Made by a program: the position numbers and the translations under genes
In this document: positions 11,553-56,396 of the stretch, in pieces
How positions within the stretch are numbered: position 1 is the stretch's first letter
Layout of the letters: each line of letters begins with the position of its first letter
Notes under the pieces: generated by a model
Told to the model about the DNA's origin: nothing
Database searches by the model: none
Seen by the model: the letters and a program-made list of their open reading frames with translations, nothing else
Source of the DNA: a virus
Lineage: Duplodnaviria > Caudoviricetes
Strand: one strand, 5' to 3'
DNA length: 64,000 bases
Virus record (IMG/VR): IMGVR_UViG_3300028603_000018
Location: 96,001-160,000 of that record

Positions 11553-12233
11553 CTAATCAACGCGTTCAAAAACTGGTCTCCAACATCGGTATAATGTATA
11601 AGCACCACCACTATTAATGACATTAGTAGCACTTGCTTTGTCATAAGGTCTAATATCCGTAATACTTGGGGTGCTCCAGCCATAACCTATAATAAAAGCT
11701 TGATTCTCGTTATTAGCGTTTACTTCTCTACACCAAAAAGATTGCTCTCTAGCATTTACACTATTGGCTGCTAGATTAGCGTATTTTGGTCCTGTATAAG
11801 TATACCCCCAACCATTATATACGGAAGCTGATAAAATTGGTAAAAATAATCTGCAAAATTCACTATGGTTAGGTTCTAACTTCATTGCATTTACATAACT
11901 AGGTAGGCTATGGGTTTCATCACTTACTCTAATAGCCCTGCAAATATATTTTACACCAGCTATCTCTATCTCTACTCCATGGATGAGACCTCTGCTATTT
12001 AACGCGTTCCAAGTTACAGATTGATAAACGTTAGAACTGGGTATATATAATTGCTTATCATCTAAAGTAAAAGATAACCAACTACTACTATTTAAACTAG
12101 TTCCACCACTTAAACCAAAATGATTGACTAAGCTAGCGTTAGTCATTAAACCACCAACTTGACCATGATACATGTAAGGGACTTTTATCCTATCCCCTCC
12201 ATCTACTGTTTTTATTAATAGTTCTTTACTCAT
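11553..12233 (-). CDS. MSKELL-tagged protein with one WRPVLE-type virion domain
   Basis: Likely start is ATG 12233 (MSKELLIKT). Contains WLSFTLDDKQLYIP...CWRPVFE, the same domain as in the 19727 and 60577 ORFs. Confidence 0.7.
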   Translation of the reverse strand: MSKELLIKTVDGGDRIKVPYMYHGQVGGLMTNASLVNHFGLSGGTSLNSSSWLSFTLDDKQLYIPSSNVYQSVTWNALNSRGLIHGVEIEIAGVKYICRAIRVSDETHSLPSYVNAMKLEPNHSEFCRLFLPILSASVYNGWGYTYTGPKYANLAANSVNAREQSFWCREVNANNENQAFIIGYGWSTPSITDIRPYDKASATNVINSGGAYTLYRCWRPVFERVD

Positions 12234-12256
12234 GTTAAATATCACTTATATAAATA

Positions 12257-12292
12257 AAATAGGAGATCTTCTTAAGGATCTCCTATTTATGC
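12257..12292. repeat. Hairpin-family element
   Basis: AAATAGGAGATC...GATCTCCTATTT-ATGC. Confidence 0.75.
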
Positions 12293-12302
12293 TGTCTTTC
12301 CA

Positions 12303-13247
12303 TTACCACGTAGCTAAATCAATACCTTCTGGCGGTGTATACTCAAACCATTTATTTTGATAGGCGATTGGAGATGATGTACTGCCGCCATATGTGTATA
12401 TTTTATTATTATAGTGAAATAATAATGGAGAACTTAGTGGTTTACCATTAAGGTGAGGATGTACTGCATCATTTCTTAATGTTATATCTGTGAAAGTTAA
12501 AGTAGTTAAATCTAATTTAGTGAAGTTACTATCAAACAAATATAAGTTCTTACCGACTTGAACGTAACCGCAATTATTTTGATTAATCGCATTAGTAAAA
12601 TTAATAGCCGTAAAAGTTTCAGTTAGATGATTAAATAGATAACCTTCCCTAGTAGAAGCAGAGGCTCCCGTTCCTAAGAGATAAAAATCATTACCTAACC
12701 TAGCATTTACAGAAGGTTGAAAAAAATAAGGCCATTCTGTTAATGTAGTAAAGGTAAGACTAAACGTATCTAGATTTAACTTAGCTATTCTTTTTAATGC
12801 GCTGTTAAAGAGATATAAAATATTTCCAAATTGCACACCAGGAACATAAGAAAAGTCTCCTAAACCAACTATTTGTCTGGTTGTCAGTTGTGCTGTATTT
12901 AAATCGATTTCATAGTAAGTATTAGGGGTATAGACTCTGGGGTATGTTAATGTTGAATCGTCATCTGTTATTAGCCTAGAACCACTGAGTGCTTTACCTG
13001 TTCCTTCAGGGTCGTTAAAGAAACTCCAGTTATTTGATGGGATGTGATAAATTGATACGTATCTAGGGGGATCTATGCCATAACCCCTATACCCTCCTCG
13101 CATCACTAAATATTCACCTTTACTCCATGAGAGTGTTATAGAAGTACCTGTACATATTGAGTCAGGACTGCTTTGCATCTCAGTAGCTTGACGCCACCCC
13201 CCCTCCATCTTGTTAGATGAGGTGGTTATTAAGAATTCTCTACTCAT
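12303..13247 (-). CDS. MSREFL-tagged Kelch/beta-propeller-like protein
   Basis: Blade-like motifs GNILYLF, GNDFYLLG, GKNLYLF and NNKIYTYGG; ends WFEYTP. Confidence 0.7.
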   Translation of the reverse strand: MSREFLITTSSNKMEGGWRQATEMQSSPDSICTGTSITLSWSKGEYLVMRGGYRGYGIDPPRYVSIYHIPSNNWSFFNDPEGTGKALSGSRLITDDDSTLTYPRVYTPNTYYEIDLNTAQLTTRQIVGLGDFSYVPGVQFGNILYLFNSALKRIAKLNLDTFSLTFTTLTEWPYFFQPSVNARLGNDFYLLGTGASASTREGYLFNHLTETFTAINFTNAINQNNCGYVQVGKNLYLFDSNFTKLDLTTLTFTDITLRNDAVHPHLNGKPLSSPLLFHYNNKIYTYGGSTSSPIAYQNKWFEYTPPEGIDLATW

Positions 13248-13256
13248 GTTATTTCA

Positions 13257-14534
13257 TTACCAAATAGTTGTTGTAGATATCTTAGCTAAATAAGCAGATG
13301 CTGATCTAAAAGGCCAATACGGAAAAGCTCCAGTTCTAGCATCATCAATATTATCTAATTCATCTTCATTAGTTGTTCTGTATAGATAATGATCGTCTCT
13401 ATTTTCTTGTACACTTAATGACCATAATCCACCAAACTCTGTCTTACTCCAATAATTACCAATAACTCCTCTAGCCATGAATAAAGGATAATCAGGTTTT
13501 ATTCCACTACCATAAGAAAGAAGTCCCTTACCATTTCTAAAGACAAAGACTTTTTCCTTAATAACATCTTTAGCCTTTAATAACACAATAAAGGATTGAG
13601 ACATAGTTAAGTACTTTGTAATAACTTCATCTGAATAGAGTTCTTCTTTACTTACAAAGTAAGGATTAATAGGAGATTGACTTAAACCTAATTGAGTCAA
13701 ATCTAAGAAACGTCTTGAATCTAAATAACGATCAAGAAAGTTAAATGAAGAGAAGTCAACATTAAGTAAGTTTACACCTGTTCTAATAAATAGTCCATCT
13801 TGGTAGGTATGTAGATAACCACCAATAACTAATAGAACTGTACAATCTTCACATTCGCTATCTATCTTAATACCAAACCCATCTTTCATAGGTCTGTTAT
13901 CAGAGAGTTTAAAGAGTTTATCTTCAGTAATAGGCTCGAAGTGTAGTTCACCTAAATTCTCAAAACTAATCAATCCAACATGATTAACTTGTGCAATATC
14001 TAAAGACTTTACACAATCTCTAACATAAGCACCATTCACATCATAGTCTGTCGCATGGATATAACCATTGATACTAACTAAGATATGTTTATAGAAATGT
14101 TCGAAGTCTGTATCTTCTCTAGTTAACTTAATACCTGTTTTACCATCTTTACCTTGATCATCAATACTAGATGAACCATCTGTCAACCATACCTTATACC
14201 CAGCTCTAAAAGCATCTTGGTATTTTACAAAGTGTTGCTTTAATTCTGGGATGATGTGTTGTGTAGGTAAGGTGTTATTACCATTAAGTACTAACATCTC
14301 AGCTACAGTTTGTTCTGTACCACTTAACTCTGTGCGTATTTCTTCAGCGTCCAGAGATAGTGTCTCTGGTAAGATAGGATGCTGTAGAACAAACACAACT
14401 TCTCTATATTGGTTAAATAGATCAATACAACGAATATTACTACTATCAATCTCTTCCCATTGACTAAAGGGTTCTTTACTTTTTACGAAAGTAGTTATTA
14501 AAGTATACATATTTAGAATCTCTTCCCTAATCAC
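13257..14534 (-). CDS. Probable virion structural protein
   Basis: 425-aa ORF (ATG start probably about 8 codons in), divergent from the tail fibre genes. Confidence 0.6.
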   Translation of the reverse strand: MIREEILNMYTLITTFVKSKEPFSQWEEIDSSNIRCIDLFNQYREVVFVLQHPILPETLSLDAEEIRTELSGTEQTVAEMLVLNGNNTLPTQHIIPELKQHFVKYQDAFRAGYKVWLTDGSSSIDDQGKDGKTGIKLTREDTDFEHFYKHILVSINGYIHATDYDVNGAYVRDCVKSLDIAQVNHVGLISFENLGELHFEPITEDKLFKLSDNRPMKDGFGIKIDSECEDCTVLLVIGGYLHTYQDGLFIRTGVNLLNVDFSSFNFLDRYLDSRRFLDLTQLGLSQSPINPYFVSKEELYSDEVITKYLTMSQSFIVLLKAKDVIKEKVFVFRNGKGLLSYGSGIKPDYPLFMARGVIGNYWSKTEFGGLWSLSVQENRDDHYLYRTTNEDELDNIDDARTGAFPYWPFRSASAYLAKISTTTIW

Positions 14535-14650
14535 TAGTATTAGTACTCAATGGATTACGATTAAGAAGATAATAGGGCAAACTTAATGATATAGTCCTGA
14601 ACGACATATTTTTTTATTTAAAATAAATAACTGCCTCGGAGTTTTTCCTC

Positions 14651-17404
14651 ATGGCTACAAGTCCTATCGTACCAACCTATCCCTTTGATCCAACAGGGAC
14701 TGCTGTTAGTAATAGAGTTACTAATGAGCAACATCCCTTAACGGCATCGAATTATAGGGATTACCAATTAATTATTCCGAGATATGCTCCGTTCTATGAG
14801 ACGGGACTTGTCTTGCGTTATCGAGATTTAAGTGGTAATATTCGTCCATTAACATTTGGTATCGATTACTATTTAGGTCACCAGTTTCAATCCGCTAGTC
14901 GTAGTGTTGGTAAGAGTTTATATGGTTCTATCTATATTCTAGATAAAACGCTCACTGGTATCATTATTATTGATAACTACCAAACTATCGGCGGTATGTG
15001 GAATATTGACGAGAATAAGATCGCTGAGATTTTAGCTGATCGAACTCATAATCCACTAATCACAACTTGGGAGCAAGTCAACGACTTACCTGTTTATTTC
15101 CCGCCTATCGACCATCCATGGAATATCTATGACATGGTGGGTATGAGCGATGTTAAAGAAGCGTTAGATAGCATTCAAGATGCTATTCGTGCTAGTGGTG
15201 AAGGTAGTATTGATGACCACATCAATAACCATAACAACCCTCACAACGTAACTAAAGCTCAAGTCGGTCTAGGTAATGTTAATAACTATAACATCGCAAC
15301 AGATGCTCAGACCGTAACAGGTACAGCTACTAATTTATACGTCGTTCCTTCTGGTGTTAGAGCGGCTATTACACAACTCGCTATTACGCCATTAACGACT
15401 CACACTAATAACTTATCAAATCCCCACAATGTGACTAAGGGACAAGTGGGACTTGGTAATGTTAATAACTTTGCTACCGCCACTATTACCGAAACCACTA
15501 TTGGTTCTAGTTCTAGTTTATATACCACACCTGCTGGTGTACGAGGTGCAATTGATGAACTCGTTGCTATTCCGTTAGCTGATCATATTAACGATCAATC
15601 TAACCCTCACCAGGTCAATAAAGCCCAAGTGGGTCTGGGTAATGTGAATAACTACGGTACTGCAAACAATAGTCAGACAATTGATGGTGTAGCAACCGAT
15701 CTTTACGTAACACCTGCTGGATTGAAAGCTGCGCTCGTAGCAGCAGGAACAGGTGGTGGTGGTGGTGAGATTTCTGATCACGTTGCTGATATGAATAACC
15801 CCCACCAAGTCACTAAGACGCAAGTGGGTTTAGGTAACGTAGATAACTATAGTACTGCTACTGTCCAAGAAACTGTTTTAGGTGCTGCAAATAACTTATT
15901 TGTCACACCTGAGGGAGCTTCTGCACTTATTGAGAATTTAGTTGGTACTTCATTGACCAACCACGTTAGTGCTATTAATAATCCTCACCAAGTCACTAAA
16001 GGACAAGTAGGCTTAGGTAATGTAAGTAACTTTGGTACTGCTTCAGTGGCAGAAACACTTGAAGGGACTTCAGAGAATTTATTTACTACGCCTTTAGGAG
16101 TATTTACTTTAGTTAAGAATTTAGCTGAAGATCCTCTTAATGCTCACGTAGCTAATACTAATAATCCTCACAGTGTGACTAAGACGCAAGTAGGATTAGG
16201 CAGTGTTAACAACTATGGTACAGCTACCCCTGCTGAAGCTAGTACAGGTACAGCAAATAACTTATATGTAACACCTGAAGGATTAACTAGCGCTATTAAT
16301 ACTAGAGCTGTTACTCCCTTAAATAATCACCTTAGTGACACTAATAACCCCCACAGTGTAACAGCTGCTCAGATTGGTGCTTACGATCAAGGACAGGTTA
16401 ATACACTTCTTCAATCTAAGTTAAATACTACTGCAACTGCTGCTGACAGTAGTAAGTTAGAAGGTAAGACTTTAGCTGAAATCTTTACTGATGTCGCTGC
16501 TATGACTGTCGATAACAGTAATAAATTAGAAGGTAAAACACTTACTGAAATCAAGGCTGAGATTGGATCTGGAGAAGCTGACGATACAACCCGTTTTGAT
16601 GGTTATACAGTTACAGAATATGCTGATTACATCATTAAACAGAATAAGACACCAGTTTATGATACTATCTTAGCTCCTGTAGGTAATGCTTCTACACCTG
16701 TTGAATACTATATTCCTTTGGATGTAGGTTTCATTGATCCAGTTTCCTCTACTAATGTGCGAGCTGCTCTATATCGTTTTGATTTATTTAGCACTAAAGC
16801 AGAAGAGAAATTGGTAACGAGTTACTATATTTATCAAAAAGGCTCTGTTATTCGCTGGTATGGTAATAATGGTAGTGATATTGTTAAAGGTGTTTATTAT
16901 GCTTTTAGTAGTGATGCTGAAATCATTGATGAAACCACTTTTAATAAAGTATATCTGTACCTGCACTTAGAATATACAGGGTTAGCTGATAGATCTATTC
17001 GTGTTACTCGTTTAGCTGGTGAGAACAGTGGTAAGATTGATCGTGATACATATCCCATCGTACCTACCTTACCATCTGGTGCTTTTGCAGCAAGTGAAGA
17101 TCCTGATATTATTCAGAGCTTTATTGGTCCTCAGGGAGTTGCTGGTGAAGATGGTGAGCAAGGCGTTCCTGGTGTAGGCGTAGAAAGAGAATTAGTCACA
17201 GGCACACTTAATCCTTCAGATTTTATTGAGATAACTGAATTTGATTGGGACAGTGTTATTCAAGCTATGGTATCTACAGTTGCTGATCCTGATGATTATT
17301 TTGATGCTATTTCTAAACTCACTATTATTAGACGCTCAACTAACATTACTGTTACTAACGTTTCAACCGAAACTCTGAACTACCGAATTACAGGTATTAA
17401 ATAA
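14651..17404 (+). CDS. Tail fibre protein 1 (NPHxVTKxQVGLGNV repeats)
   Basis: phiKZ-like fibre N-terminus YPFDPTG. Seven ~61-aa HxxxxxNPH repeats, the last a variant, and a short collagen-like GPQGVAGEDGEQGVPG near the C-terminus. Confidence 0.85.
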   Translation: MATSPIVPTYPFDPTGTAVSNRVTNEQHPLTASNYRDYQLIIPRYAPFYETGLVLRYRDLSGNIRPLTFGIDYYLGHQFQSASRSVGKSLYGSIYILDKTLTGIIIIDNYQTIGGMWNIDENKIAEILADRTHNPLITTWEQVNDLPVYFPPIDHPWNIYDMVGMSDVKEALDSIQDAIRASGEGSIDDHINNHNNPHNVTKAQVGLGNVNNYNIATDAQTVTGTATNLYVVPSGVRAAITQLAITPLTTHTNNLSNPHNVTKGQVGLGNVNNFATATITETTIGSSSSLYTTPAGVRGAIDELVAIPLADHINDQSNPHQVNKAQVGLGNVNNYGTANNSQTIDGVATDLYVTPAGLKAALVAAGTGGGGGEISDHVADMNNPHQVTKTQVGLGNVDNYSTATVQETVLGAANNLFVTPEGASALIENLVGTSLTNHVSAINNPHQVTKGQVGLGNVSNFGTASVAETLEGTSENLFTTPLGVFTLVKNLAEDPLNAHVANTNNPHSVTKTQVGLGSVNNYGTATPAEASTGTANNLYVTPEGLTSAINTRAVTPLNNHLSDTNNPHSVTAAQIGAYDQGQVNTLLQSKLNTTATAADSSKLEGKTLAEIFTDVAAMTVDNSNKLEGKTLTEIKAEIGSGEADDTTRFDGYTVTEYADYIIKQNKTPVYDTILAPVGNASTPVEYYIPLDVGFIDPVSSTNVRAALYRFDLFSTKAEEKLVTSYYIYQKGSVIRWYGNNGSDIVKGVYYAFSSDAEIIDETTFNKVYLYLHLEYTGLADRSIRVTRLAGENSGKIDRDTYPIVPTLPSGAFAASEDPDIIQSFIGPQGVAGEDGEQGVPGVGVERELVTGTLNPSDFIEITEFDWDSVIQAMVSTVADPDDYFDAISKLTIIRRSTNITVTNVSTETLNYRITGIK

Positions 17405-17418
17405 AGGTATAATAAACA

Positions 17419-19635
17419 ATGTCTAATCCGATTATCGTAAGGTATGATTTAGATAGGACTGGTATCAGTCCAGATAACAGAGTGGTCGGTGAAATCCATG
17501 AATTATCTAATCGACGTATTCGACCCATTTCACCACACTGTGGTCCTTTCTTCTTAGATAACCTTCTTGTTAGAGATAGTTTGACTCAACAAGAGTTAGT
17601 AATGGGAGTGGACTGGGAGCCTTCAGAACTCTACACGGTGGCTTCCTTAGATTTAGCTAAAGAGATCTATGCTCTAATCTTAATTACTAATCCTGATGTA
17701 TCTAACTCTGTAGAGATTGATTATCAAGTAGTGGGTGGTGAGTATAGCTTTAACACGTATGCTATTGTAAAGATGATCGAGGATCTAGAACTCGATAATC
17801 GTCCTGTAGATTGGCCTAACATTATTGGTAAGCCAGATGAATTCACACCAGCACCTCACTTACATGACGTAGGTGATACTTTTGGTTGGGAATATACAGT
17901 ACAAGCGCTTTACAATATCCGTGACGCTATTCTGATGGGTGATAGGGCTTCTCATGATCAAATTTTAGATTATATTGATAGTCAAATCACCTCTTTTGAT
18001 GATTTGGTTAGTAATCACATTAATAACACCAATAACCCTCACAGTGTAACTAAAGCTCAAGTAGGGTTAGGTAATGTGAGTAACTTTAGTACTGCTACAC
18101 CCGCCCAAACATCAACAGGTACAGCTACTAACCTATTTGTCACGCCTGAGGGTGTAACTTTAGCTATTACTAATAGAGCAGTTACACCTTTAAACACTCA
18201 CATTAGTAATACTAGCAATCCGCATAACGTAACCAAAGCACAAGTAGGATTAGGTAGTGTTAATAATTACAGTACAGCCACACCAGCAGAAACCAATACA
18301 GGTACAGCAAGTAACCTGTATGTAACACCTGCTGGTGTACTTAATGCTATTAACACTAGGGCGGTTACGCCGCTTAATGCCTTTATCGCACGAAGGGACA
18401 ACCCTCATGTTGTGACGAAGCCTCAAGTAGGGTTAGGTAACGTAGATAACTTTGCTACAGCAAACAATAGTCAGGCAGTGGCAGGTACAGCTACTAACTT
18501 ATTCATTACTCCAGCGAGTTTGAAGGCAACGATTGATAGTAGAGTTCCAGCTGGTATGGTGGATCACGTCACTAATATCAATAACCCTCACCAAGTGACA
18601 AAAGCACAAGTGGGATTAGGATTAGTTGATAACTATGGCACAGCTTCATCTAGTCAAGCTGTGACTGGGACAGCTACTAACCTCTTTGTAACTCCAGCAG
18701 GTCTACGCGCCGCAATTGATAATCGTGTGCCTTCTGGTTTTGCTACTCACCTTACTAATACTAATAATCCACATAGTGTAACAAAAGCACAAGTGGGTCT
18801 TGGTAATGTGAATAACTACGGCACGGCTACACCAGCAGAGGCTAACACAGGAACAGCAAGTAACCTGTATGTAACACCTGCTGGTCTGTTAAATGCTATT
18901 AATACTAGAGCAGTTACACCATTAACAACTCACACGAGTAATACCAGTAACCCTCACAACGTAACTGCTGCTCAGGTAGGCGCTTATACTAAATCAGAGA
19001 TCGATACCATGGTCTCTAATTTAAGTAATTCTTACCTGCCTTTAGCAGGTGGTTCCATGACTGGCAGGATTACTAACACACCTAATGCTGCAACTCGTGT
19101 TCAGATGGATTCCAGTCCAACAACATTAGGAGCCATCCTTTTCGATGCTGGCACAACAGCTACAGGAGATGCTGAGGTTGCTGGTTTCTCTTTCCGAGCT
19201 GGTACTAACATTGTTAAGATGGGTCTTAATAATACGGGTGTTTTTGGTTGGGGTGGTGGTACAAGATCGCCTTGGTCTTTCTATTCGTTAAACAACGGTG
19301 ATGTTGTCGCATCAGGTGATGTTACAGCTTACTCTGATCCTCGTTTAAAAGAAAATGTGAAACCTATTCTTAATGCTCTAGATATTAATAGAAAATTAAG
19401 TGGAAAGTATTTCATATGGAAAGACTTACCTCATGTAAGAAATAAAGCTGGTACGAGTGATCTAGGTGTTATGGCTGATGAAGTAGAGGCTGTTCTTCCT
19501 GAAGCAGTTAAAGAGTCTGTTGAGTATGATGGTCAGACTTATAAGACTGTAGCCTATGGAAAAATTGTTCCAGTACTTATTGAAGCCGTTAAGGAATTAG
19601 AGTTAAAAGTATTGCGTTTGGAATCAATGTTATAA
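17419..19635 (+). CDS. Tail fibre protein 2 with C-terminal intramolecular chaperone (peptidase S74)
   Basis: N-terminus paralogous to fibre 1, six repeats, and the S74 signature YSDPRLKENVKPI...YGKIVPVLIEAVKEL. Confidence 0.88.
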   Translation: MSNPIIVRYDLDRTGISPDNRVVGEIHELSNRRIRPISPHCGPFFLDNLLVRDSLTQQELVMGVDWEPSELYTVASLDLAKEIYALILITNPDVSNSVEIDYQVVGGEYSFNTYAIVKMIEDLELDNRPVDWPNIIGKPDEFTPAPHLHDVGDTFGWEYTVQALYNIRDAILMGDRASHDQILDYIDSQITSFDDLVSNHINNTNNPHSVTKAQVGLGNVSNFSTATPAQTSTGTATNLFVTPEGVTLAITNRAVTPLNTHISNTSNPHNVTKAQVGLGSVNNYSTATPAETNTGTASNLYVTPAGVLNAINTRAVTPLNAFIARRDNPHVVTKPQVGLGNVDNFATANNSQAVAGTATNLFITPASLKATIDSRVPAGMVDHVTNINNPHQVTKAQVGLGLVDNYGTASSSQAVTGTATNLFVTPAGLRAAIDNRVPSGFATHLTNTNNPHSVTKAQVGLGNVNNYGTATPAEANTGTASNLYVTPAGLLNAINTRAVTPLTTHTSNTSNPHNVTAAQVGAYTKSEIDTMVSNLSNSYLPLAGGSMTGRITNTPNAATRVQMDSSPTTLGAILFDAGTTATGDAEVAGFSFRAGTNIVKMGLNNTGVFGWGGGTRSPWSFYSLNNGDVVASGDVTAYSDPRLKENVKPILNALDINRKLSGKYFIWKDLPHVRNKAGTSDLGVMADEVEAVLPEAVKESVEYDGQTYKTVAYGKIVPVLIEAVKELELKVLRLESML

Positions 19636-19660
19636 TACATTTTTAAGTATGTACTTTATC

Positions 19661-19693
19661 TAAATTAGGGACTTTTTACAAGTCCCTAATTTA
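19661..19693. terminator. Hairpin-family element
   Basis: Perfect stem TAAATTAGGGACTT...AAGTCCCTAATTTA. Confidence 0.7.
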
Positions 19694-19726: not shown

Positions 19727-21313
19727 ATGAGTTTGCCTGATTGGACTGATGATCCCTTAACTCCTCTTTCAATTGGAGACATCAGGGACGAATGGGGCGC
19801 AACATTTGGGAACCCTAGACTTAGTTGGTTTTATGCAAACGGTCCTTATGTTGATGCTAATGCTAAAGGATATCCATTTGGTGTAGAGACAAATATCCCT
19901 ACCTCTGGGCGTATTAGTATTAGTAATTTCTACGGTAGTGCAGCTGATGTAGCTATTTGTAATAGAACAGGTAAATGGGCTACTTATATTGCACGAAATA
20001 CCAACTCTGGTGGTTTAGGTAGACTTAACCCTATCAACTATGTTTGGAGAGGTTTAAGATTTCCTATTTTCCCTTTCTTGACAGATTATCCTGCTCCCTT
20101 TACATCTACTGAAAATCTAATCTTTAAAACACCTGACGTTACCCAAGGTCAATTAGCGTTATACGGTTTAGAAGATGCTAACGTTGTTTGTATTGGTCCT
20201 GATGATTATCTTTATATCAACTTCTATAGCTATACTGACCACATTGTAAGACCTGGTATCTCCATTCTTAACCCTGTTACAGGTCAGTTCACTGCCTATC
20301 ATGGACAGAACTATATTGAGAACATGGATGGTACTGGTGGCTTAGGCGGAGAGATGGTAGTCTACGCAGGTAAAGATCTCCCAGCTAGTGGTGTATTCTT
20401 TCCTGGTTATACTTACGACGGCTCTCCTCACTATTGGGTGAGGATGGAGGTGAGATTAAGACGTAGGAATGACACATTTGCTTGGGGTAATTCAGCTGGA
20501 TTAATGTATCGTGGCGAGCATAATGAGAACAATGTTATCTCTTACTCTGGTATCTCATCTTTAGTTGGCTTTAACTCTGGTACACTAATTAATAATAAAG
20601 ATAGCGGTTGGTTAAAAGTAACGTTAAATAATAAAGAGTTATATGTAGCTAAGAAAAACGTTAGACGAAATGTTACACTATCTCAATTAAACGCAGCTAA
20701 CCTCGTTACAGGCAATAGAACAGTTACTGTCAGAGGAGTTAATTATCGTATTCGATTACTAACTGCTTCTGAATGGGTTTCTTTATTCCCACCTTTATCG
20801 AGAGAGACACTATTAGGTTATTCCGGTGTTAAGTTAGCACAGTTTGAGCAAAGTGAGTTTGTAAGACATACTGAATTAGCTCAAGTAATTACTAAAGGTG
20901 GGTATGATCCTGAATGGCCATTTAACTCTACTCGTACCTTTGATTTCATTCGAAATTATCAGAGTTGGGGTGGTCATGGTGGTGGGTATCTCAGACCAGG
21001 TCATATTCAAAACTTTGTTCCTGGTACAGGTACTATGTATAGTTCCCGCTTATTATGGAACTACGGCTATCCTTTAGCCAGTCTTCTTCAGGATGGTACG
21101 GCTCGTGGGGCTGATGGTGCTCAATGGAAGTGGACTATTAGTGAATCTGAATACTGGGCAGAATTTGAAGAAGGTGCTATTCAACATGGTATTCAGTATA
21201 CTGCTGGTGCTGTAACCATTCCTCCTTCATCACCAAGTCCTATTGGTAGTGGTACATTTACTTCTTCTAGGAACTATGAATTGGGTTGGCGGCCTGTGTT
21301 AGAAGAAATTTAA
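19727..21313 (+). CDS. Putative tail-fibre tip adhesin with C-terminal WRPVLE domain
   Basis: N-terminal LSIGDIRDEWG...IPTSGRISISNFYG motif of the kind found after S74 fibres; ends GWRPVLEEI. Confidence 0.6.
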   Translation: MSLPDWTDDPLTPLSIGDIRDEWGATFGNPRLSWFYANGPYVDANAKGYPFGVETNIPTSGRISISNFYGSAADVAICNRTGKWATYIARNTNSGGLGRLNPINYVWRGLRFPIFPFLTDYPAPFTSTENLIFKTPDVTQGQLALYGLEDANVVCIGPDDYLYINFYSYTDHIVRPGISILNPVTGQFTAYHGQNYIENMDGTGGLGGEMVVYAGKDLPASGVFFPGYTYDGSPHYWVRMEVRLRRRNDTFAWGNSAGLMYRGEHNENNVISYSGISSLVGFNSGTLINNKDSGWLKVTLNNKELYVAKKNVRRNVTLSQLNAANLVTGNRTVTVRGVNYRIRLLTASEWVSLFPPLSRETLLGYSGVKLAQFEQSEFVRHTELAQVITKGGYDPEWPFNSTRTFDFIRNYQSWGGHGGGYLRPGHIQNFVPGTGTMYSSRLLWNYGYPLASLLQDGTARGADGAQWKWTISESEYWAEFEEGAIQHGIQYTAGAVTIPPSSPSPIGSGTFTSSRNYELGWRPVLEEI

Positions 21314-21326: not shown

Positions 21327-22173
21327 ATGAGTAAAGATTTATTGATAGGAGTAGGTGGAGGGGAGGGGGTAGCACCTCCTGGACAGGTTCTTTGGGGAGT
21401 AAATATTGTCAACTCTTACTACGGTCCTAATGGTTTATTCCCCTTTGTTGTTCCTCAAGGCGTTTATTCTATTTGTGCTGTCACAGTGGGTAGGGGTGGT
21501 TATGGACCGGGACATACGAGTGGCAGGACTGCCGCCGGAGGTGGTGGAGGATTATCCTATCGTAATGATATTCCAGTGACTCCTGGCGAAACATTGACTA
21601 TTGACTATTGACTTCAATGCCGAACATGTAGGTATTCGTAGAGATGCTGAATGGTTATGCTATGCTCAATGCAGTGCTGCTAGTAGAACGGGCGGTTTAG
21701 GTGGTAAAAGCCTCTCTGTTATACATACTGGTGGTGGAAATGGTGGTCTCGGCGCGAATAATACAGGCAGTACAGTCCAGCGTTTAGGAGGTGGTGGAGC
21801 TGGGGGGTATACTAGTAACGGCGGAAATGGTGGTGGACATAACACTACTCAGACCACTAGTTTTGATGGTGGTAGTGGAGGTAACTATAATGCTTCATTC
21901 AACACATGTTCTGGTGGATTTGGTGTAACCTTACTGGGATCACGCGTACCTGGATCTAATGGAGTTCCTGTAGGCTCTCCTTACCCTCCTAATGTGAATA
22001 ATACTTCCACTGCACTACGTAACGCTCCTCCTAGAGGTGGTGGTAGATATGGTGGTGGTGCTGCTGTTATTTATAATACTACCTCTGGTAATGTGAATGG
22101 TCAGTCTTCTGGTGGTGTAAGAATTATTTGGGGTGAAGGTAGGTCTTACCCTTATAATGCTTTAGATGTATAA
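21327..22173 (+). pseudogene. MSKDLL-tagged glycine-rich adhesin-like protein, frameshifted at (ATTGACT)3
   Basis: The 94-aa and 190-aa ORFs join into a single 279-aa protein (...VTPGETLTIDFNAEH...) if one heptamer is removed. Confidence 0.8.
21593..21613. repeat. Tandem heptamer (ATTGACT)3
   Basis: Copies at 21593, 21600 and 21607. Confidence 0.95.
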
Positions 22174-22283: not shown

Positions 22284-23109
22284 TTATTCTTCAGGTGTGT
22301 ATTCCCAAATCCTAGCTTCTGGTACATCACCTATTACTATGAAACTATAGAAGTATATCTTTCCGTTTAATACACAAGGAAAGCAACTAGTAGACGATAA
22401 CCACATATTAAAAGGATCAGGAACAGGTATTTCAGTTACTTTATTTGTAACATCATTATACTTATAGAAAGAAGCACCAATAGTACTATTACCAGCTATG
22501 AAATAAATATCATCACCTAACGAACATCCTCTTCCCCATACACCACCGCCAGCATCATTAAACTCCCATTCCTCATCTAGCTCAATATACTCAATTGTTT
22601 CATCTAATAAATTATACTTAGATATTAATTTAATTCTATCAGGCTTAGTTAAATCTACGCGGGGTAAAATACTATATATGTAATTTTTATGCAGAACTCT
22701 TAATACAGGGTTTCTGGGCATAATTATATTTTTATATACTTTAGTATTAGTGCTTAGATTAACTACATCCATAACTTGATCACTTATCGCGTATAAATGA
22801 TTATCAAACACAAAACCATTCCAACTGGGTAAGGTAAATGGATTTGTTAATGCTAAAGATGAAATATGATCTGAAGCATAAGGTTTGATTTTAAGCATTC
22901 CTACGTTAGCTGTAGTCCCACCAATATAACCACCTAATGAATAAATAAACTCACCATCAGTAACAACTCCATACCTATTTCTAGTAAGTAATTGAGTTAT
23001 TGACCAAGCTATCCTCAGATAAATTCTTCTTGATATTGGATCGATGATGAAGTATTTAACACTACCACTCTTCAATCTCGTGAGAACTTATTAATATTTC
23101 TTTAGACAT
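22284..23109 (-). pseudogene. MSKEIL-tagged Kelch-like protein, frameshifted near the 5' end
   Basis: ATG 23109 gives MSKEILISSHEIEEW*. The Kelch body (FIYSLGG, DIYFIAG, GKIYFY, WEYTPEE) is in another frame; the span is 826 nt = 3n+1. Confidence 0.7.
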
Positions 23110-37134: not shown

Positions 37135-37148
37135 GAAGATTTAAAACC

Positions 37149-39740: not shown

Positions 39741-39759
39741 ACCTCTAAAGAGAGTATCA

Positions 39760-41448
39760 ATGAGTAATACGCCTTTTCTTAACCCTCTTGGTATTGACGG
39801 GAGGGCTTTAGTTCAAGATCCCTATAGTACATGGAAGATATGGAACTATAGTGAGATTTATTTTGGAGCAGGGAGTCCATCCACTGCTATTTATATCCCT
39901 AAAGTCAATGACCTCATTCTGAATTTAGATGAAGGTATCTTCTATATTGTTCTTCAGATTGATCCCGTTAGTTATATTCCTGTAATTAAACGTTATGTCA
40001 TCAGCACGGCTTCCGAAGAAGATGGTAATGGACTTCTACTTGGTGTAGGCGTTGGTTCGGCTTCAGAGTTGAATCGTGTTTATATCAACAAAACCACTAT
40101 TCCTTATTCAGCAGTTGTCGATAGGAGGAAATGGGTGGGTGGATCTGATGCTGCCTATGCTATCGCTTATCGTGGTTCTCCTGTATCAGGTAGTCCTATG
40201 GAGGTCATCTCAATTATGTATGACACCAATAGTTCTACTATCTTAGGTAATGAGATTCCACTGGAGGATGTTACTGCACCTGGTTTTGCTAATTGTAAAG
40301 TTATTAAACCTTTCTATACGAAGGTTGATTTACAAGATAATGAGATTGTTACTATCATTGTTTATAATAATGAGAATACAGCCATTGAGCGAGGACAGCT
40401 ACTTGTTGAAAATACAGCCTGGATTCGAGATCAAACTGATAGTCTGAAATACATTGTCGATATCTTCTGCACTTCACCCTTCATTAAAGATACTGATCCT
40501 GATCTTATTGTCTATCCTCTTAATCTACCAAAGAACGCTTTAAACTTATTTGGTACAGTTCTTTATAGTGATGGTGAACAACGTACCTTACCAGTTAATG
40601 GTGGTAAGTTCTCTATGATGGGTCTTTCTGGTTTCGTAGCAACTTATCCTAACCAAACAGATGAATGGGTATTAAACTATCAATTAGATCAAAATGAGGC
40701 TGTTCATGGAGCTGTAGTGGGTCAACATTATTCCATGACAAAACCCTATCGCGTCAAAGTAACTCAAGTCCAAGGAATGTATTCTGTTAAACTCTTTGGA
40801 TTCCCTGTATGGATTAACGCAGTCAATGGCTACACTATGCGTTGGTTCTTATACAGTTTAGAGAGACAAGAGTGGTTTGATGTCACTCCTTACGTTCGTG
40901 TTGGTGCGAATAGCCCTGCGTTTGATCCTACCCTTTATGGTGTTAACCAACAAATTCAATGGGTAATTGAATTAAAAGATGTTGACCCTGTCTATGGTGA
41001 CTGGACTCATACTCAGGTTATTAATATCGCCTTAATGCGTCAAGGAACAGAAGTCATCATGCCTCGCTGGACAGTAAGAGATCAGGGTCAGGCTGAACCT
41101 TACGGACGTGATATTGAATGTCAAATGACTTTCATCAACCAGAACTTACGTCAGCTTAATTTTGGTTCTGGTTTAGCTACAAAAGCTCAATGGTTAGAAA
41201 AAGCGTATTATGAACTTAACCCGCTTTATAATTCCTTAGCTGAAACTAAACCTATTGAACCCGATTATATTAAGATTAGAACAGGGTCTGGTTTAGAGAT
41301 GGAAATCAGTGTGGATGATTGGAATAGTGATATTCCGACTAACCTTCCAATTGTCGCTAATGAAACCCTTTTCTTACATTTCGTAAAACGTACTGCTGAT
41401 AGTGAACTACAGTTAGCTGTTGGTGGGTGGTCTGTAAGACAACTGTAA
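39760..41448 (+). CDS. Virion structural/baseplate protein (phiKZ gp26-like)
   Basis: 562 aa; synteny next to the terminase. Confidence 0.65.
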   Translation: MSNTPFLNPLGIDGRALVQDPYSTWKIWNYSEIYFGAGSPSTAIYIPKVNDLILNLDEGIFYIVLQIDPVSYIPVIKRYVISTASEEDGNGLLLGVGVGSASELNRVYINKTTIPYSAVVDRRKWVGGSDAAYAIAYRGSPVSGSPMEVISIMYDTNSSTILGNEIPLEDVTAPGFANCKVIKPFYTKVDLQDNEIVTIIVYNNENTAIERGQLLVENTAWIRDQTDSLKYIVDIFCTSPFIKDTDPDLIVYPLNLPKNALNLFGTVLYSDGEQRTLPVNGGKFSMMGLSGFVATYPNQTDEWVLNYQLDQNEAVHGAVVGQHYSMTKPYRVKVTQVQGMYSVKLFGFPVWINAVNGYTMRWFLYSLERQEWFDVTPYVRVGANSPAFDPTLYGVNQQIQWVIELKDVDPVYGDWTHTQVINIALMRQGTEVIMPRWTVRDQGQAEPYGRDIECQMTFINQNLRQLNFGSGLATKAQWLEKAYYELNPLYNSLAETKPIEPDYIKIRTGSGLEMEISVDDWNSDIPTNLPIVANETLFLHFVKRTADSELQLAVGGWSVRQL

Positions 41449-41456: not shown

Positions 41457-41489
41457 AAATAAGAGAGCTAAATGCTCTCTTATTTTTTT
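41457..41489 (+). terminator. Intrinsic terminator (hairpin family)
   Basis: AAATAAGAGAGC...GCTCTCTTATTT followed by a T run. Confidence 0.75.
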
Positions 41490-41509
41490 CTTTAGAAAAA
41501 AGGTCAGTA

Positions 41510-42179
41510 ATGAGTAAGGAACTGCTATTAATTAGTTCTACCCCCCCCCTCCCCTCCAGGCATATTTACTAAGTTAAAACCTGCTACTGACGTAAGATTC
41601 CATCTCCAGTCAGTTGATGGTGTAATCAAAGATGTCAGTTCTTATAACCATGTTATTAATAATAGTGGACATATTACTGTCGATAGTGAAGGGTTTATTA
41701 ATAACGGTAACACATCAGGCTTCTTAGAAATATCAAGTGCTAATTTTCCTTCTCTAATGCAAGACTTTACAGTAGAGATGAGAGTTAAAATTGCAGATTT
41801 ATCTAAACTATATCACCAAATGGTGGGTAACTGGACTAGTAGGAACTTTCAATTTACTTACCGTGGGGTTAGTGGTAATTATTTTGGATTTGAAGATACG
41901 CCTGGTTGGGTTATTTCCCCTTATAGTCCTGAATTAAATACTTATATGCATATAGCATTTGTAAGACATAATAATGTTTTCTTTTGTTATAAGAATGGAG
42001 TTAAAGCTCAGTTAAGTCGTTTACCTACAGACGAGGTTAGAAGAACTGAGAATATCAAGATATTCCAAGTTTATGGTAGTACAGGTTATTCCTTGATAGG
42101 CGGGTTGTATGATGTAAGATTTTCCCAGAGTGCTGTATATACTGATAACTTTGAAATCAACCCTTTACCCTTAGTCTAG
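41510..42179 (+). pseudogene. MSKELL-tagged LamG/concanavalin-like protein, frameshifted at a C9 tract
   Basis: ATG 41510 gives MSKELLLISSTPP... Losing one C joins it to PPGIFTKLKPATDVRFHLQ...DFTVEMRV...HIAFVR...DVRFS, a 222-aa protein; the paralog at 55725 is 223 aa. Confidence 0.82.
41541..41549. repeat. C9 homopolymer at the frameshift site
   Basis: TCTA-CCCCCCCCC-TCCCCTCC. Confidence 0.95.
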
Positions 42180-47121: not shown

Positions 47122-47128
47122 CGTCTTA

Positions 47129-49739: not shown

Positions 49740-49836
49740 GTCAAGCTTCCTTGCGATTAGGTATAATTAAGATTTATTCATTCACATATCATCTATAAGT
49801 ATCTGTTATTAATATGTCTTTTTTAGGGAAATGTGA

Positions 49837-50382: not shown

Positions 50383-50401
50383 ATAAGGACGTATTGAAAA
50401 A

Positions 50402-51472
50402 ATGTCGAATACTATTGAACGTACTCGTGGTAACATCCGTGTCTATGCTTGCGGTGGTGCTGGTATTAATCTAGGCCGAATGGTAGAGACCATCTCTGAG
50501 AAATCTAAGGATAATCTTAACTTTGCTCAGATTGATATCACTTATGTAGATACTAGCCTGGCTAATGCAAAAGGACTTCCTAAGGATTGCTTCTACCACA
50601 TCCAGCCTTCTTATACGCATATCAGTGATCGTGAAGATACTCTAGATGGTAGTGGGCAAAAACGTGATGAGAACGCTGAATCTGTTAAGCAAGCTATTCC
50701 CGATCTACTTTTAAAACATCCTCCTAAAGATATTAACATTCTTATCCATTCTGGTGGTGGTGGATCAGGTAGCGTTCTTGCTCCCTTTATCACTGCTCAA
50801 CTAAAGAAGAAAGGATTAGAAGTTATTATCATCCTAATTGGTAGTCGAGATACTTTAAAGGATATCACTAACACTATTGATACTATCAAAAGTTATGCTG
50901 GTATCTCTAAGGTGAATAACTCACCTATTGCTATTGCTTATGAAGAAAACGGTTCTGAATACAATAACTCTCGGTTAAGCAGTCAGGTTGTTGATAGCAA
51001 TGTACTTTTGACAGTTAATAGCTTAGCTGTTCTCTTTTCTAAGAATAATGAACGCTTAGATACGAAAGATTTGGAACACTGGTTGAACTTCCAGAAGGTT
51101 ACGGATTACCAACCTGGTATTGTGGGACTTCAGATTTGTGATCGCAATACTGCTAAGGACTTCGATCAGAATATTGTTTCTGTTGCAACACTGCATTCAG
51201 AGACTTCCGGTACGAGTTTAGGTAGTAATAACATTCCATCTTACCAGTGTCGTGGTATCTTACCTGAAGAACTCTCTTCTGTTGTTGTGGATGAAGATAA
51301 TAACAGTAAACTACCGCTTCATTTTATTCTCTCTGATGAGATTATTGTAGATAGTCTCTTTAGTTTGAATAAACTATCTGCTGGTTTAAAAGAGAAGTCT
51401 CAGTCTCGACCTAACATGGTGTCTTTGATCAGTGATGATGACAATGCTTCTGATGATGGTATTGTTCTTTAA
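50402..51472 (+). CDS. phuZ: Phage tubulin PhuZ
   Basis: VYACGGAGINLG, YVDTS, DGSGQKR, tubulin signature GGGSGS, RLDTKD, and acidic C-terminus DDGIVL. Confidence 0.92.
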   Translation: MSNTIERTRGNIRVYACGGAGINLGRMVETISEKSKDNLNFAQIDITYVDTSLANAKGLPKDCFYHIQPSYTHISDREDTLDGSGQKRDENAESVKQAIPDLLLKHPPKDINILIHSGGGGSGSVLAPFITAQLKKKGLEVIIILIGSRDTLKDITNTIDTIKSYAGISKVNNSPIAIAYEENGSEYNNSRLSSQVVDSNVLLTVNSLAVLFSKNNERLDTKDLEHWLNFQKVTDYQPGIVGLQICDRNTAKDFDQNIVSVATLHSETSGTSLGSNNIPSYQCRGILPEELSSVVVDEDNNSKLPLHFILSDEIIVDSLFSLNKLSAGLKEKSQSRPNMVSLISDDDNASDDGIVL

Positions 51473-51558
51473 TTCTTCTTTCTCTTGATGTAGCTGTGAA
51501 AGGGAGTGGGTATCAACCTACTCCCTTTTCATTACTGAGGATTTATTTTTTACTAGAC

Positions 51559-54128: not shown

Positions 54129-54584
54129 ATGAAACTAAAAATCTTACCCGGACTAAAGGTTCTAGAAAAGCAAACTGCTTTAAAGAGATTACCTGAATAT
54201 GTGTATGTTGATCTAGAAAGAGAGTTTATCGAACTACTCGTTGAACTCCAAGTACTTATCAATACTAACCCTCTTAGCATTACTCGCTTTCCTCCTATTG
54301 AAACTAATTCTATTATTGATACAGAAGAACTCTTTAAAGTTTATACTAAAGAGGAAGAAATATCTATTAATATAACTGAGTTAGCACTAGAGTTAGTTGA
54401 AGTCATTGATCCTTTCTTTGATGACTATCCTGATATGAATAATCAATATGTTAATTTACTTACCTGTCATTTGTATTCTATTTACAAACGGTTAAAGAAT
54501 TTAGATCTCTTTATAAATGGTAAGTTAGTTTATGAATTTTATAAGGAATATGAAAGAGGTTTTCTAATTAAGATTAAAGAATGA
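54129..54584 (+). CDS. Hypothetical protein
   Basis: Abuts the previous stop; followed by a long hairpin at 54601-54651. Confidence 0.55.
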   Translation: MKLKILPGLKVLEKQTALKRLPEYVYVDLEREFIELLVELQVLINTNPLSITRFPPIETNSIIDTEELFKVYTKEEEISINITELALELVEVIDPFFDDYPDMNNQYVNLLTCHLYSIYKRLKNLDLFINGKLVYEFYKEYERGFLIKIKE

Positions 54585-54695
54585 TAAAAAAGATTAGAAT
54601 AAGTACTATGTCTTAACAACTTCTCAATAGGTTGTTAAATACATAGTACTTTATTTTTTTCTTGGTGTATAACAAACCTCTCTCTTTTAAATGTT

Positions 54696-55109
54696 ATGAA
54701 TATCCATGAACTAAATGCAGCTAGTAGAAATATTTTACTAGAGATAGGTCCTATGTGCCGTACACTCATTCATTTCTTAAAGACAAAGAAAGTAGAGCAT
54801 CAGGACATTATCACAGTTATAGACTCTGTCGTTTATTCTTTAAACTACCCGTCTCAAGCAGAAAGAGAACATTCTTTAGATAATCTAAATTTCAGTAGGA
54901 TGGTGAAGAGTCCATTTCTAACAGGAGTAGTTTCTGAGAATGATCTTTTTCTATTTAAACAAAGTTTACGCGGTGCTGCTACTGAAATATGGGATAAGTA
55001 TCGATATTTAGATTTAGATCATTTGATCGGAACTCATGCAGGTTATCATTCCTTAGTCTTGAGTTCTCTAACTAATCGACATCTATTTATCTCAGCTCTC
55101 CCTTATTAG
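54696..55109 (+). CDS. Hypothetical protein
   Basis: 137-aa ORF. Confidence 0.55.
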   Translation: MNIHELNAASRNILLEIGPMCRTLIHFLKTKKVEHQDIITVIDSVVYSLNYPSQAEREHSLDNLNFSRMVKSPFLTGVVSENDLFLFKQSLRGAATEIWDKYRYLDLDHLIGTHAGYHSLVLSSLTNRHLFISALPY

Positions 55110-55123
55110 GAAAAGAAAAGACA

Positions 55124-55540
55124 ATGATTTATCAATTTGAACCTGGTCAAAAATATTCATTTGACACCTATGCTCCTCAAATCCTGGGTACTGAATTTAA
55201 AACAGTAGTAGTTAAATCTGTTACTGATTACGAGGACGCTATTTCTGAGGAAGATGTTCAGGTATTACATAGTCAGATTCTTGGTTATATTACTGACTCT
55301 ACTGTATCTGTGCCTGCTGATTTTAGAAAACTCACTTATATTAAAATTGATACAGGAGTTGGTAAGCGTCGTTTTATTGCTGTAGAGTGGATTAAGCAAA
55401 ATACCATTACTAAAATCTCTGAACTCAATATTGATGTAACTATCTTTAGAGTAAGTGATCCTGCTAAAGTACGTTTAGTGAGGGAAGCTCTGTCTCAGAA
55501 TGGGTTTACTGATTTTCAAATTACTACAAGAGAAGCGTAA
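55124..55540 (+). CDS. Conserved jumbo-phage hypothetical protein
   Basis: GQKYSFDTYAPQILG...WIKQNTI...ALSQNGF pattern; RBS present. Confidence 0.6.
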   Translation: MIYQFEPGQKYSFDTYAPQILGTEFKTVVVKSVTDYEDAISEEDVQVLHSQILGYITDSTVSVPADFRKLTYIKIDTGVGKRRFIAVEWIKQNTITKISELNIDVTIFRVSDPAKVRLVREALSQNGFTDFQITTREA

Positions 55541-55724
55541 TGTCTAAAAAATAAATACGCCACGCTATAGAAGGGAGAGGGGGTAAGAACACCCTTATTA
55601 GTATTTAGATCAGATCACTCACAAGCACTACTAACATTCTTACTAGTAGCAGTGTTTATACATCATACCTGTATTGGATCTTATAGATACATAATCAATC
55701 ACTTTTCTTAAAAGTAATATAATC

Positions 55725-56396
55725 ATGAGTAGAGAACTTCTAATAACTTCCTCCTTAGTTGATGGGTGGGGTAGTGAGATAGTGGATGAATTCACTAATT
55801 TTTATTTAACAGTACGGGATGGTCAGATAATCGATCTTATTAATCCTTCTAATTATGTAAATATCATAGGTACTGGGATTAGTACATCAGGTATAGAGAT
55901 TGTTAATACGACACGCTCTGGTTCTGGTATAGAAGTTCCTTCTGCGGCTTTTAATGTAACCTCATTAGAGAGTTCTACAGTGGAGTTCTGGGTTTATTTT
56001 ACTAACCCAATAGCTGAGCTTTATGATCAAATGTTAGGTCAGTGGGGGAGCGGAGCAAATAGCACATTTCAATTTTGTGTACTAGATTCTTATCTTGCTA
56101 TAGCACAGGCTAGACCAGGTAACTCTATTAGTACTTTTAGAAGAATACCTAATACTTGGATGCATGTAGCTTATGTGAACCCCGCTGGTGGCGGCAATAT
56201 GGTTATCTATGTAAATGGAGTTTCAGAGCAACTAGATAGACGTTGGACAGTTTCACCTAATTTGAATATTCCTATGTCTTTATTGAAGGTATATGGACAA
56301 AATGGATTTAGCTTATTAGGTAGGATAGCTAAAATGAGAATCTCCACCATTGCTAGGTATACAGAGAATTTCGTACCTAATTATGGAATGTATTGA
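55725..56396 (+). CDS. MSRELL-tagged LamG/concanavalin-like protein (intact)
   Basis: STVEFWVY, NTWMHVAYV, IYVNG and GRIAKMRISTIARYTENFVP. Confidence 0.8.
   Translation: MSRELLITSSLVDGWGSEIVDEFTNFYLTVRDGQIIDLINPSNYVNIIGTGISTSGIEIVNTTRSGSGIEVPSAAFNVTSLESSTVEFWVYFTNPIAELYDQMLGQWGSGANSTFQFCVLDSYLAIAQARPGNSISTFRRIPNTWMHVAYVNPAGGGNMVIYVNGVSEQLDRRWTVSPNLNIPMSLLKVYGQNGFSLLGRIAKMRISTIARYTENFVPNYGMY

Follow-up and report, generated by a model that had tools for sequence, protein, structure and literature searches.

Unrelated binding proteins of a phiKZ-like jumbo phage open with one short peptide, and several of their genes carry frame-setting repeats

Results

Eleven dispersed genes of one contig open with the same peptide

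The stretch of DNA analysed here (the window; 64,000 nucleotides) comprises bases 96001-160000 of the 244,062-bp contig C90 (IMG/VR record IMGVR_UViG_3300028603_000018), and it contains six dispersed genes whose products begin with variants of one short peptide, henceforth the tag. Coordinates without the prefix C90 refer to the window. The tagged genes of the contig were numbered as members 1-11, and the window holds members 5-10, which open with MSKELLI (12233, minus strand), MSREFLI (13247, minus), MSKDLLI (21327, plus), MSKEILI (23109, minus), MSKELLL (41510, plus) and MSRELLI (55725, plus), respectively. All six had been listed in an initial annotation made from the sequence alone, and all six were found at the positions and on the strands given there. 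Outside the window we found MREILIA (C90:32588), MSKELML (C90:33306), MSKELLI (C90:42695), MSKDLLV (C90:83990, minus strand) and MSKELLL (C90:197848), such that the family grows to 11 members once MSKDLLV, MSKELML and MREILIA are added; the six genes of the window thus stand, but six as the size of the family does not. Seven of the 11 members are intact, among 219 open reading frames (ORFs) of at least 100 aa on C90, and four are out of frame in this assembly.

A six-frame scan of the 4.13-Mb assembly to which C90 belongs returned eight matches to MS[KR][ED]xL[IL], all eight on C90, and each of them opens an ORF, no more than 20 codons from an upstream stop. When the pattern was widened to MS[KR][ED]x[LM][ILV], C90 gave 10 matches, where 20 second-order Markov simulations averaged 0.05; the remaining 3.89 Mb of the assembly gave none. 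The proposal that the motif is commoner at N-termini than chance would allow therefore survives a search of all six frames. The exact heptapeptide is nevertheless not diagnostic by itself, because a scan of IMG/VR with ATGAGTAAAGAAYTNYTNATH produced 43 matches, each of them single and in an unrelated protein such as a T4-like prohead protease, with no related bodies and no multi-copy contigs among them.

The Ser, the Lys/Arg and above all the Leu/Ile codons of the tag vary among the members, exactly as the initial annotation had it, and as this variation is synonymous it must be the peptide, and not the DNA, that is under conservation. A reason for the tag at the level of mRNA or translation was considered and excluded, given that the codons differ within the phage and that the motif persists across very different G+C contents.

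The tag precedes four kinds of head

Behind the tag, the 11 proteins carry Kelch (four), LamG (three), WRPVLE (two) or Gly-rich (two) heads, so that the divergence into four folds seen at the outset was recovered, albeit with both Kelch-like members of the window just below threshold. The LamG heads of members 9 (41757-42179) and 10 (55725-56396) and of C90:32588 score 31.5, 32.7 and 44.1 bits with Laminin_G_3, against a Pfam cut-off of 27.6. Kelch matches reach up to 108.9 bits, above the Pfam cut-off, at C90:42695, whereas the Kelch-like members 12303-13247 and 22284-23075 of the window obtain 24.4 and 21.8 bits against 25.3; C90:197848 was taken as Kelch by its Atlas structure (TM 0.64-0.68). 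Among the Gly-rich members, C90:83990 scores 37.3 bits with Gly_rich_2 (cut-off 24.3) and 21327-22173 corresponds to phrog_4474. Only two pairs of members are recognisable to BLAST as paralogues, at 28% and 31% identity: the protein at C90:33306 is a paralogue of the WRPVLE protein of member 5, and the LamG proteins of members 9 and 10 are 31% identical. Since the tag occurs far beyond chance, is encoded by synonymous codons and stands in front of bodies that are either unalignable or just 28-31% identical, it has been selected, and the data support the view that it is a selected peptide common to unrelated binding folds.

The WRPVLE domain of member 5 is of the type found in phiKZ gp83, and an exhaustive HMMER search with member 5 returned 298 relatives. 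Its motif extends over about 200 aa (F.GEV...ITG..LA...GLT.GT...WLKF...SEWNRL...WCQE...RG...GWRPVLEL), and the WRPVLE homologue P0079 matches 171 records of phiKZ-like phages, including PhiPA3 gp080 and 201phi2-1 gp452; homology to this gp83 / gp452-456 family is confined to two of the 11 members. Other routes were less productive: a word-indexed homologue search with member 5 found only member 5 itself, tblastn searches of phages with member 5 and with the Gly-rich and LamG members gave no useful match, and searches of the PDB by protein sequence and by profile gave none at all. An AlphaFold2 (AF2) model of member 5 has a pLDDT of 80, with low confidence at residues 1-19; the tag and linker (residues 1-20) stay at a pLDDT of 47-63 ahead of a confidently modelled domain. 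Compared by VIA-align, the model matches PvdO (Z 7.2), TvpA (7.1), Mtd (5.9) and many C-type lectin-like domains (around 5), all with Z below 8. TvpA is a variable protein of a diversity-generating retroelement (DGR), as is TaqVP, which is among the matches as well, and Mtd determines tropism in a Bordetella phage. The list is homogeneous, the E-values in Foldseek are weak, and the modelled WRPVLE domain likely has a C-type-lectin-like fold. The contig also encodes an untagged 2,179-aa ORF at C90:163116 (minus strand) with about eight tandem WRPVLE modules.

Such an arrangement could conceivably mean that the peptide is an oligomerisation or fold-capping element (engaged, for example, in strand exchange within a trimer), inherited from an ancestor that exchanged its C-terminal domain time and again; the present proteins would then share no socket. 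Receptor-binding proteins are commonly oligomeric and associate by N-terminal regions, and the fibres of phiKZ itself assemble by gp131-like N-terminal segments together with a six-helix bundle (PMC13250141). However, Kelch, LamG and C-type-lectin folds are self-contained, linkers of variable length part the tag from the domain, the tag does not pack on the domain in the model, and seven residues cannot make a stable bundle. We give this explanation little credence.

Repeats in the tagged genes set the reading frame

All three G/C runs of at least 9 nt, and four of the five runs of at least 7 nt, on the 244-kb contig lie 30-45 nt past the ATG of a tag: a C10 at C90:42695, a C9 in member 9, a G10 at C90:197848 and a G7 in member 6. 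The sole C90 run of at least 7 nt outside the tagged genes is at C90:178825-178831. A further, G6 run breaks C90:33306, and altogether five members have G/C tracts of 6-10 nt at codons 11-17. Because CCC and GGG are rare in this phage, where they make up just 8% of the Pro/Gly codons, these runs must be maintained at the nucleotide level. In the window, the G7 tract (C7 on the plus strand) occupies codons 15-17 of member 6 (13197-13203, minus strand) and leaves this gene in frame, whereas the C9 tract of member 9 (41541-41549, plus) puts it out of frame, with either C8 or C11 restoring the frame. Member 7 carries a different kind of repeat, namely three copies of the heptamer ATTGACT (21593-21613, plus), of which two would be in frame. 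In member 8 the lesion is less clear, consisting of two in-frame stops (TAG and TAA) past 23109 and a change of frame. The original count of three out-of-frame members among six is thus right, and together with C90:33306 members 7, 8 and 9 make up the genes that are off in this assembly.

Two independent assemblies of the same phage from other samples, ENA ERZ27247376 and JGI 3300015214, match the window over 20.7 kb with 99.95% identity, and only two indels set them apart from it. The first lies in the tract of member 6, which is 7 nt long here and in frame, but 8 nt in ERZ27247376 and 6 nt in JGI 3300015214, both of which are out of frame; in assemblies L068 and L069, which have two ATTGACT copies in member 7, the gene was called with a later start, as a 291-aa product. 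The second lies in member 7, whose ATTGACT is present in three copies here (off) and in two copies in ERZ27247376 and JGI 3300015214 (on, 279 aa). As both indels shift the reading frame, the assemblies display opposite ON and OFF states of the same genes. What would be expected of contingency loci, a repeat that sets the frame inside a coding region and a polymorphism of its length on a near-identical background, is accordingly seen here, the latter at two loci. The idea that the family is partly phase-variable is, in this sense, directly supported for members 6 and 7, whose repeat lengths differ across assemblies, but not for member 8, which has seemingly decayed.

Sequencing error as the only cause of the frameshifts is excluded for members 6 and 7 by the same indels. 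A broader explanation would be that the frameshifts are unregulated, in that they represent pseudogenes or errors of assembly while the runs do no more than encode Gly/Pro linkers, or else that slippage in transcription or on the ribosome restores expression of the off alleles. Long homopolymers are known sites of polymerase slippage, the lesions of member 8 are fixed in three assemblies, the off states of the C9 and G6 tracts are constant in the assemblies compared, and contig breaks at tracts may equally mean difficulties in sequencing. On the other hand, the sole two indels in 20.7 kb both fall into repeats of tagged genes, a 7-nt unit is atypical of sequencing error, one tract has a different length in each of three samples, the runs employ CCC and GGG even though these codons are rare, the three longest G/C runs of C90 share one position behind the tag, and the frames are otherwise intact downstream. 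Taken together, we regard this explanation as rather improbable.

Some contigs stop or change at the very places concerned. Two Logan contigs end within tracts, among them the tract of member 6, and one of the two ends with 14 C. Contig k141_1654286 of ERZ27247376 follows the window up to the start codon of member 9, where it departs to continue for about 130 nt without a counterpart anywhere in the 4.13-Mb assembly before it ends. This divergence may reflect replacement of a cassette, or an insertion, at the tag; as evidence for switching, however, it is suggestive but weak, and so are the Logan contig ends.

PhiKZ and its relatives use the same kind of N-terminus

The tag is not peculiar to this phage, inasmuch as proteins of phiKZ, PhiPA3 and 201phi2-1 open alike. 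Dozens of the 298 HMMER relatives of member 5 (about 200-260 aa) begin with M-[LIF]-E-x-[LM]-L, for instance MLEALLS, MFEVMLG or MIELLLA, followed by a variable linker and then the domain. In phiKZ, both gp83 (504 aa) and gp298 (335 aa, Kelch) open with MFELLLS, encoded by differing codons. PhiPA3 has at least six such proteins, including gp080-083 and gp360, with MFELLLG, MMESILG, MLELMLS, MFELLLS (twice) and, on gp360, MFEILLS, and the C-terminal half of gp360 is a Kelch propeller (Pfam E 2e-60). In 201phi2-1, gp456 opens with MIDLMLS, and the motif of gp452, MIDLLMT, begins 13 codons into the annotated gene at an internal Met that is probably the true start; likewise, an in-frame, unannotated start upstream of PhiPA3 gp082 (8184-8855) yields MLELMLS, so that the annotated starts of both gp082 and gp452 look wrong. 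One metagenomic contig combines MIELLLS on a WRPVLE protein with MLESMLM on a Gly-rich protein. Only such specific ORF starts count as evidence, because the loose DNA pattern M-x-[ED]-x-h-h showed overall no enrichment over control in phiKZ, PhiPA3 and 201phi2-1.

By comparison of these N-termini, the tag is best described as the local form of a type of N-terminus, M-x-E-x-L-L, found widely among phiKZ-like phages. As the initiator Met is usually removed ahead of Ser, the mature S-K-E-L-L-I would fall in register with M-x-E-x-L-L. The variants are similar inside one genome and unlike between genomes, a likeness within each phage that may be read as co-evolution with a phage-specific partner. 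A literature search with four tag strings, MFELLL and MSKELLI among them, found no relevant paper, and gp83 and gp298 go unmentioned in the phiKZ atlas and the Goslar papers. The DUF7941 filament family of Goslar was considered as a counterpart and rejected, being a separate family.

Some of these relatives are found in particles. The records of 201phi2-1 gp452 and gp456 carry the note 'identified as virion protein by mass spectrometry', and phiKZ gp298 is a virion protein of low abundance that acts as a tail-associated adsorption factor: the mutant orf298::Tn forms plaques and adsorbs normally on PAO1 but does not adsorb to the wild isolates PA1032 and Env201 (bioRxiv 10.1101/2025.11.23.690004). 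That transposon study does not mention the N-terminal motif (bioRxiv 10.1101/2025.11.23.690004).

These data bear on the idea that the peptide is no stable anchor but a transient signal, read by a chaperone or assembly factor, employed in sorting outside the phage nucleus, or acting in turnover in the manner of an N-degron. A short linear motif at the extreme N-terminus, followed by a disordered linker, is typical of motifs that are read by adaptors, chimalliviruses do sort proteins between compartments, and gp83 and gp298 are missing from the modelled phiKZ virion, as a flexible or weak attachment would allow. Nevertheless, tagged proteins do reach particles, since relatives are present in purified virions and gp298 acts at adsorption, and no candidate for a protein that reads the signal was found; the phage-specific homogenisation of the tag suits both an anchor and a transient signal. 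On balance, a transient signal seems improbable to us.

Tagged genes lie in and beside tail-fibre and baseplate modules

C90 has a G+C content of 35.8%, while that of the other large contigs of its assembly is around 64%, and because of this contrast it is taken to be a phage contig binned with an unrelated bacterium. Three more contigs of low G+C (C39, C67 and C87; 37-41% G+C, 62-145 kb) are in the same bin, and the tag is in none of them. C90 encodes a split RNA polymerase beta subunit (phrog_3148), a phiKZ-type DNA polymerase, a terminase, a tail sheath (match at E 1e-70) and a DUF7194 protein, as well as homologues of phiKZ gp28, gp27 and gp26. A PhuZ-like tubulin gene (50402-51472; E 3e-13, 25% identity to 201phi2-1 gp59) is consistent with a nucleus-forming lifestyle. 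As judged by these core genes, C90 is a phiKZ-like (chimallivirus-type) jumbo phage, and its nearest isolates are just 31-39% identical in one conserved virion protein; megablast of 13 kb of the window against the phage collection gave no match.

Member 5 (11553-12233, minus strand) is an intact gene of 226 aa in which MSKELLI is followed by a linker and the WRPVLE domain, and member 6 (12303-13247, minus) encodes MSREFLI and a Kelch-like body (314 aa). Directly upstream of both and on the same strand is a homologue of phiKZ gp130 (13257-14534, minus; 31% identity, E 2e-42), which aligns to phiKZ 133125-134387, that is PHIKZ130. Two tail-fibre genes follow on the plus strand (14651-19635; 917 and 738 aa), which match phrog_2163/13857 and tail-fibre PHROGs, with a Peptidase_S74 C-terminus, and the succession of the gp130 homologue and the fibre genes is syntenic with gp130 and gp131-135 of phiKZ. 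Next come an untagged 528-aa protein with a WRPVLE-type C-terminus (19727-21313, plus), member 7 with MSKDLLI and the Gly-rich domain (21327-22173, plus; split here into 94 and 190 aa) and, on the minus strand, member 8 (22284-23109), in which MSKEILI and the lesion precede the Kelch-like body. Farther along, homologues of phiKZ gp28, gp27 and gp26 (36223-41448, plus; PhiKZ_VTX, DUF7193 and the phrog_3430 virion protein) are directly followed at their 3' side by member 9 (MSKELLL and LamG, 41510-42179, plus, out of frame), and member 10 (MSRELLI and LamG, 55725-56396, plus) is an intact gene of 223 aa without a tract. In phiKZ, the fibres attach beneath gp130 at the outer, peripheral baseplate, and gp26 and gp27 are in the same region (PMC13250141). 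A location of the tagged genes within or beside tail-fibre and outer-baseplate modules is thus supported.

In the 528-aa WRPVLE protein itself, the comparison with JGI 3300015214 offers a separate observation, as all three single-nucleotide polymorphisms over 20.7 kb fall into this gene and are nonsynonymous (Y169F, T389S and D394A), which hints at diversifying selection on a candidate receptor-binding protein.

Between the structural units and the tagged genes stand long, AT-flanked hairpins of one family, AAATAGGAG..loop..CTCCTATTT with a T-run, at 11392-11425, 12257-12288 (minus strand), 19661-19693 and 41462-41492. The 'hairpin-family element' of the initial annotation can be equated with these terminator-like hairpins of the AAATAGGAG...CTCCTATTT type, which are probably intrinsic terminators reused as boundaries between units.

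The location of the genes also speaks to whether the peptide might address its bearers to the head, as a capsid-targeting or propeptide signal on which the prohead protease would act. The capsid-targeting sequence (CTS) of T4 has precisely this form, one short peptide at the N-termini of otherwise unrelated proteins, and S-[KR]-E is present in seven of the 11 tags. The cleavage site of the phiKZ protease reportedly reads S/A/G-X-E (Thomas et al. are said to have defined it in 2012), which S-K/R-E would match. A protease motif at the end of the peptide is, however, not conserved throughout the family: the tags of phiKZ, PhiPA3 and 201phi2-1 (MFE, MIE, MID, MLE) lack S/A/G at this place, three local members have D, and MREILIA lacks the Ser. 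Moreover, cleavage would take off four residues only, gp298 acts in adsorption, and the genes, whose products have lectin-type heads, belong to modules for tail fibres and baseplate. We consider a capsid-targeting role very improbable.

Discussion

The best reading of these findings, to which we would assign slightly better than even chances, is that the tagged proteins are accessory adhesins mounted by a docking peptide and subject to phase variation of the contingency type. The 11 dispersed genes would encode small accessory adhesins of 220-315 aa, in each of which a short, flexible linker of Gly/Pro/Ser joins the N-terminal peptide of 6-7 residues to a single lectin-type head. We infer that the peptide anchors all heads at one and the same place on the virion and that the tracts provide reversible, stochastic expression. 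The docking element would be the mature peptide S-K/R-E/D-x-L-I/L, which would insert into a common site in the peripheral baseplate or the fibre apparatus, and mounting various heads on this one socket could widen or change the specificity of adsorption. In several members a hypermutable element at the junction of tag and head, or elsewhere within the gene, sets the frame by its length, be it a G/C homopolymer of 6-10 nt or the 7-nt tandem repeat, and because tract length differs between populations, each virion lineage may express a stochastic subset of heads.

Several points weigh against this interpretation. As to docking, the virion atlas of phiKZ, in which 40 proteins are modelled, includes neither gp83 nor gp298 (PMC13250141). 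With only 6-7 residues the peptide is also very short for docking, considering that the validated Klebsiella peptide has 29 residues (PMC13352976). As to switching, the C9 of member 9, the G10 of C90:197848, the G6 of C90:33306 and the C10 of C90:42695 are constant in two to three assemblies (the tract of member 9 is also C9 in NCBI GCA_023230825.1, there with an A>G change at 41540), so that hypermutability is directly seen at two loci only. Because member 8 combines two stops with a change of frame and is identical in sequence in three assemblies, it is probably a decaying pseudogene and not a switch. Members 1, 4 and 10 lack a long tract, and member 5 has just GGAGGGG. Finally, differences between consensus assemblies cannot yield switching rates.

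A bolder version would hold that chimalliviruses have, on the peripheral baseplate or the fibre apparatus, a universal socket that takes any protein with the N-terminal hexapeptide x-x-E-x-L-L, and that the 11 heads form a combinatorially phase-variable kit from which each burst draws different subsets. This is possible, but we consider it unlikely. If true, the socket would constitute a bet-hedging mechanism of host range that differs from DGRs and from invertases, and designed binders could be mounted on phiKZ-like phages by means of the tag as a portable handle. Host recognition by phiKZ-like phages is poorly understood. Most of the flexible periphery has no model in the recent virion atlases of phiKZ and Goslar, and it took until 2025 for the part of gp298 in adsorption to be recognised. 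A family-wide N-terminal motif that connects gp83, gp298 and many lectin-type proteins supplies a concrete rule, open to testing, on which accessory proteins these virions mount and in what way, and the repeat tracts point to phase-variable receptor-binding genes, with natural polymorphism, in a group unrelated to the Campylobacter phages, suggesting that jumbo phages hedge their host range stochastically.

Contrary to the initial annotation, which knew of no description of such a system, known systems resemble parts of the one proposed here, above all the docking peptide of the second receptor-binding protein (RBP2) of Klebsiella podophages and the polyG tracts of Campylobacter phages. The CTS of T4 is an N-terminal peptide of about 10 residues on the unrelated, polymorphic proteins IPI-III and Alt, and it likewise serves as an address label for the virion. 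It targets proteins to the core of the head and is removed by the prohead protease; here, in contrast, genomic context, the folds and the behaviour of the gp298 mutant all argue for the tail and for adsorption. In Campylobacter phages (Fletchervirus), hypermutable polyG tracts in structural and receptor-binding genes are said to generate ON/OFF subpopulations, as reportedly described by Sorensen et al. in 2021. Those phages belong to another group and the proteins concerned are others, and what sets the present case apart is the fixed position of the tract behind a shared tag, the multigene family and the one switch based on a heptanucleotide.

Klebsiella phages KP32, K11 and KP34 attach RBP2 to the T4gp10-like branching domain of RBP1 by a 'conserved peptide' at the N-terminus of RBP2; this peptide is required to mount the second receptor-binding protein, and it can be transferred to unrelated heads (PMC13352976; PMC6872550). 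The logic of mounting is the same as that proposed for the present phage, for which it is argued from conservation and context only, whereas in Klebsiella the partner, the branching domain, is established and phase variation is absent. The 29 residues of the RBP2 peptide have no sequence similarity to the 6-7 residues of the tag, and a podophage has a single RBP2, whereas the jumbo myophage has as many as 11 small proteins of the lectin type.

The closest likeness is to gp83 and gp298 of phiKZ and to their counterparts in PhiPA3 and 201phi2-1, which, by HMMER and tblastn, combine a homologous WRPVLE-type domain or a Kelch body with the same kind of N-terminus. Here the tag has an extra Ser (MSKELLI), the members number 11 as against the two found in phiKZ, LamG and Gly-rich heads are included besides the gp83 type, and several genes carry G/C homopolymers or a 7-nt repeat by which the frame is switched, while phiKZ gp298 and gp83 have no Pro/Gly run behind the tag. 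What appears to be new, then, is the M-x-E-x-L-L motif itself, the link that it forms among gp83-type, Kelch, LamG and Gly-rich virion proteins of chimalliviruses, and an 11-member family with repeat switches at the junction of tag and head.

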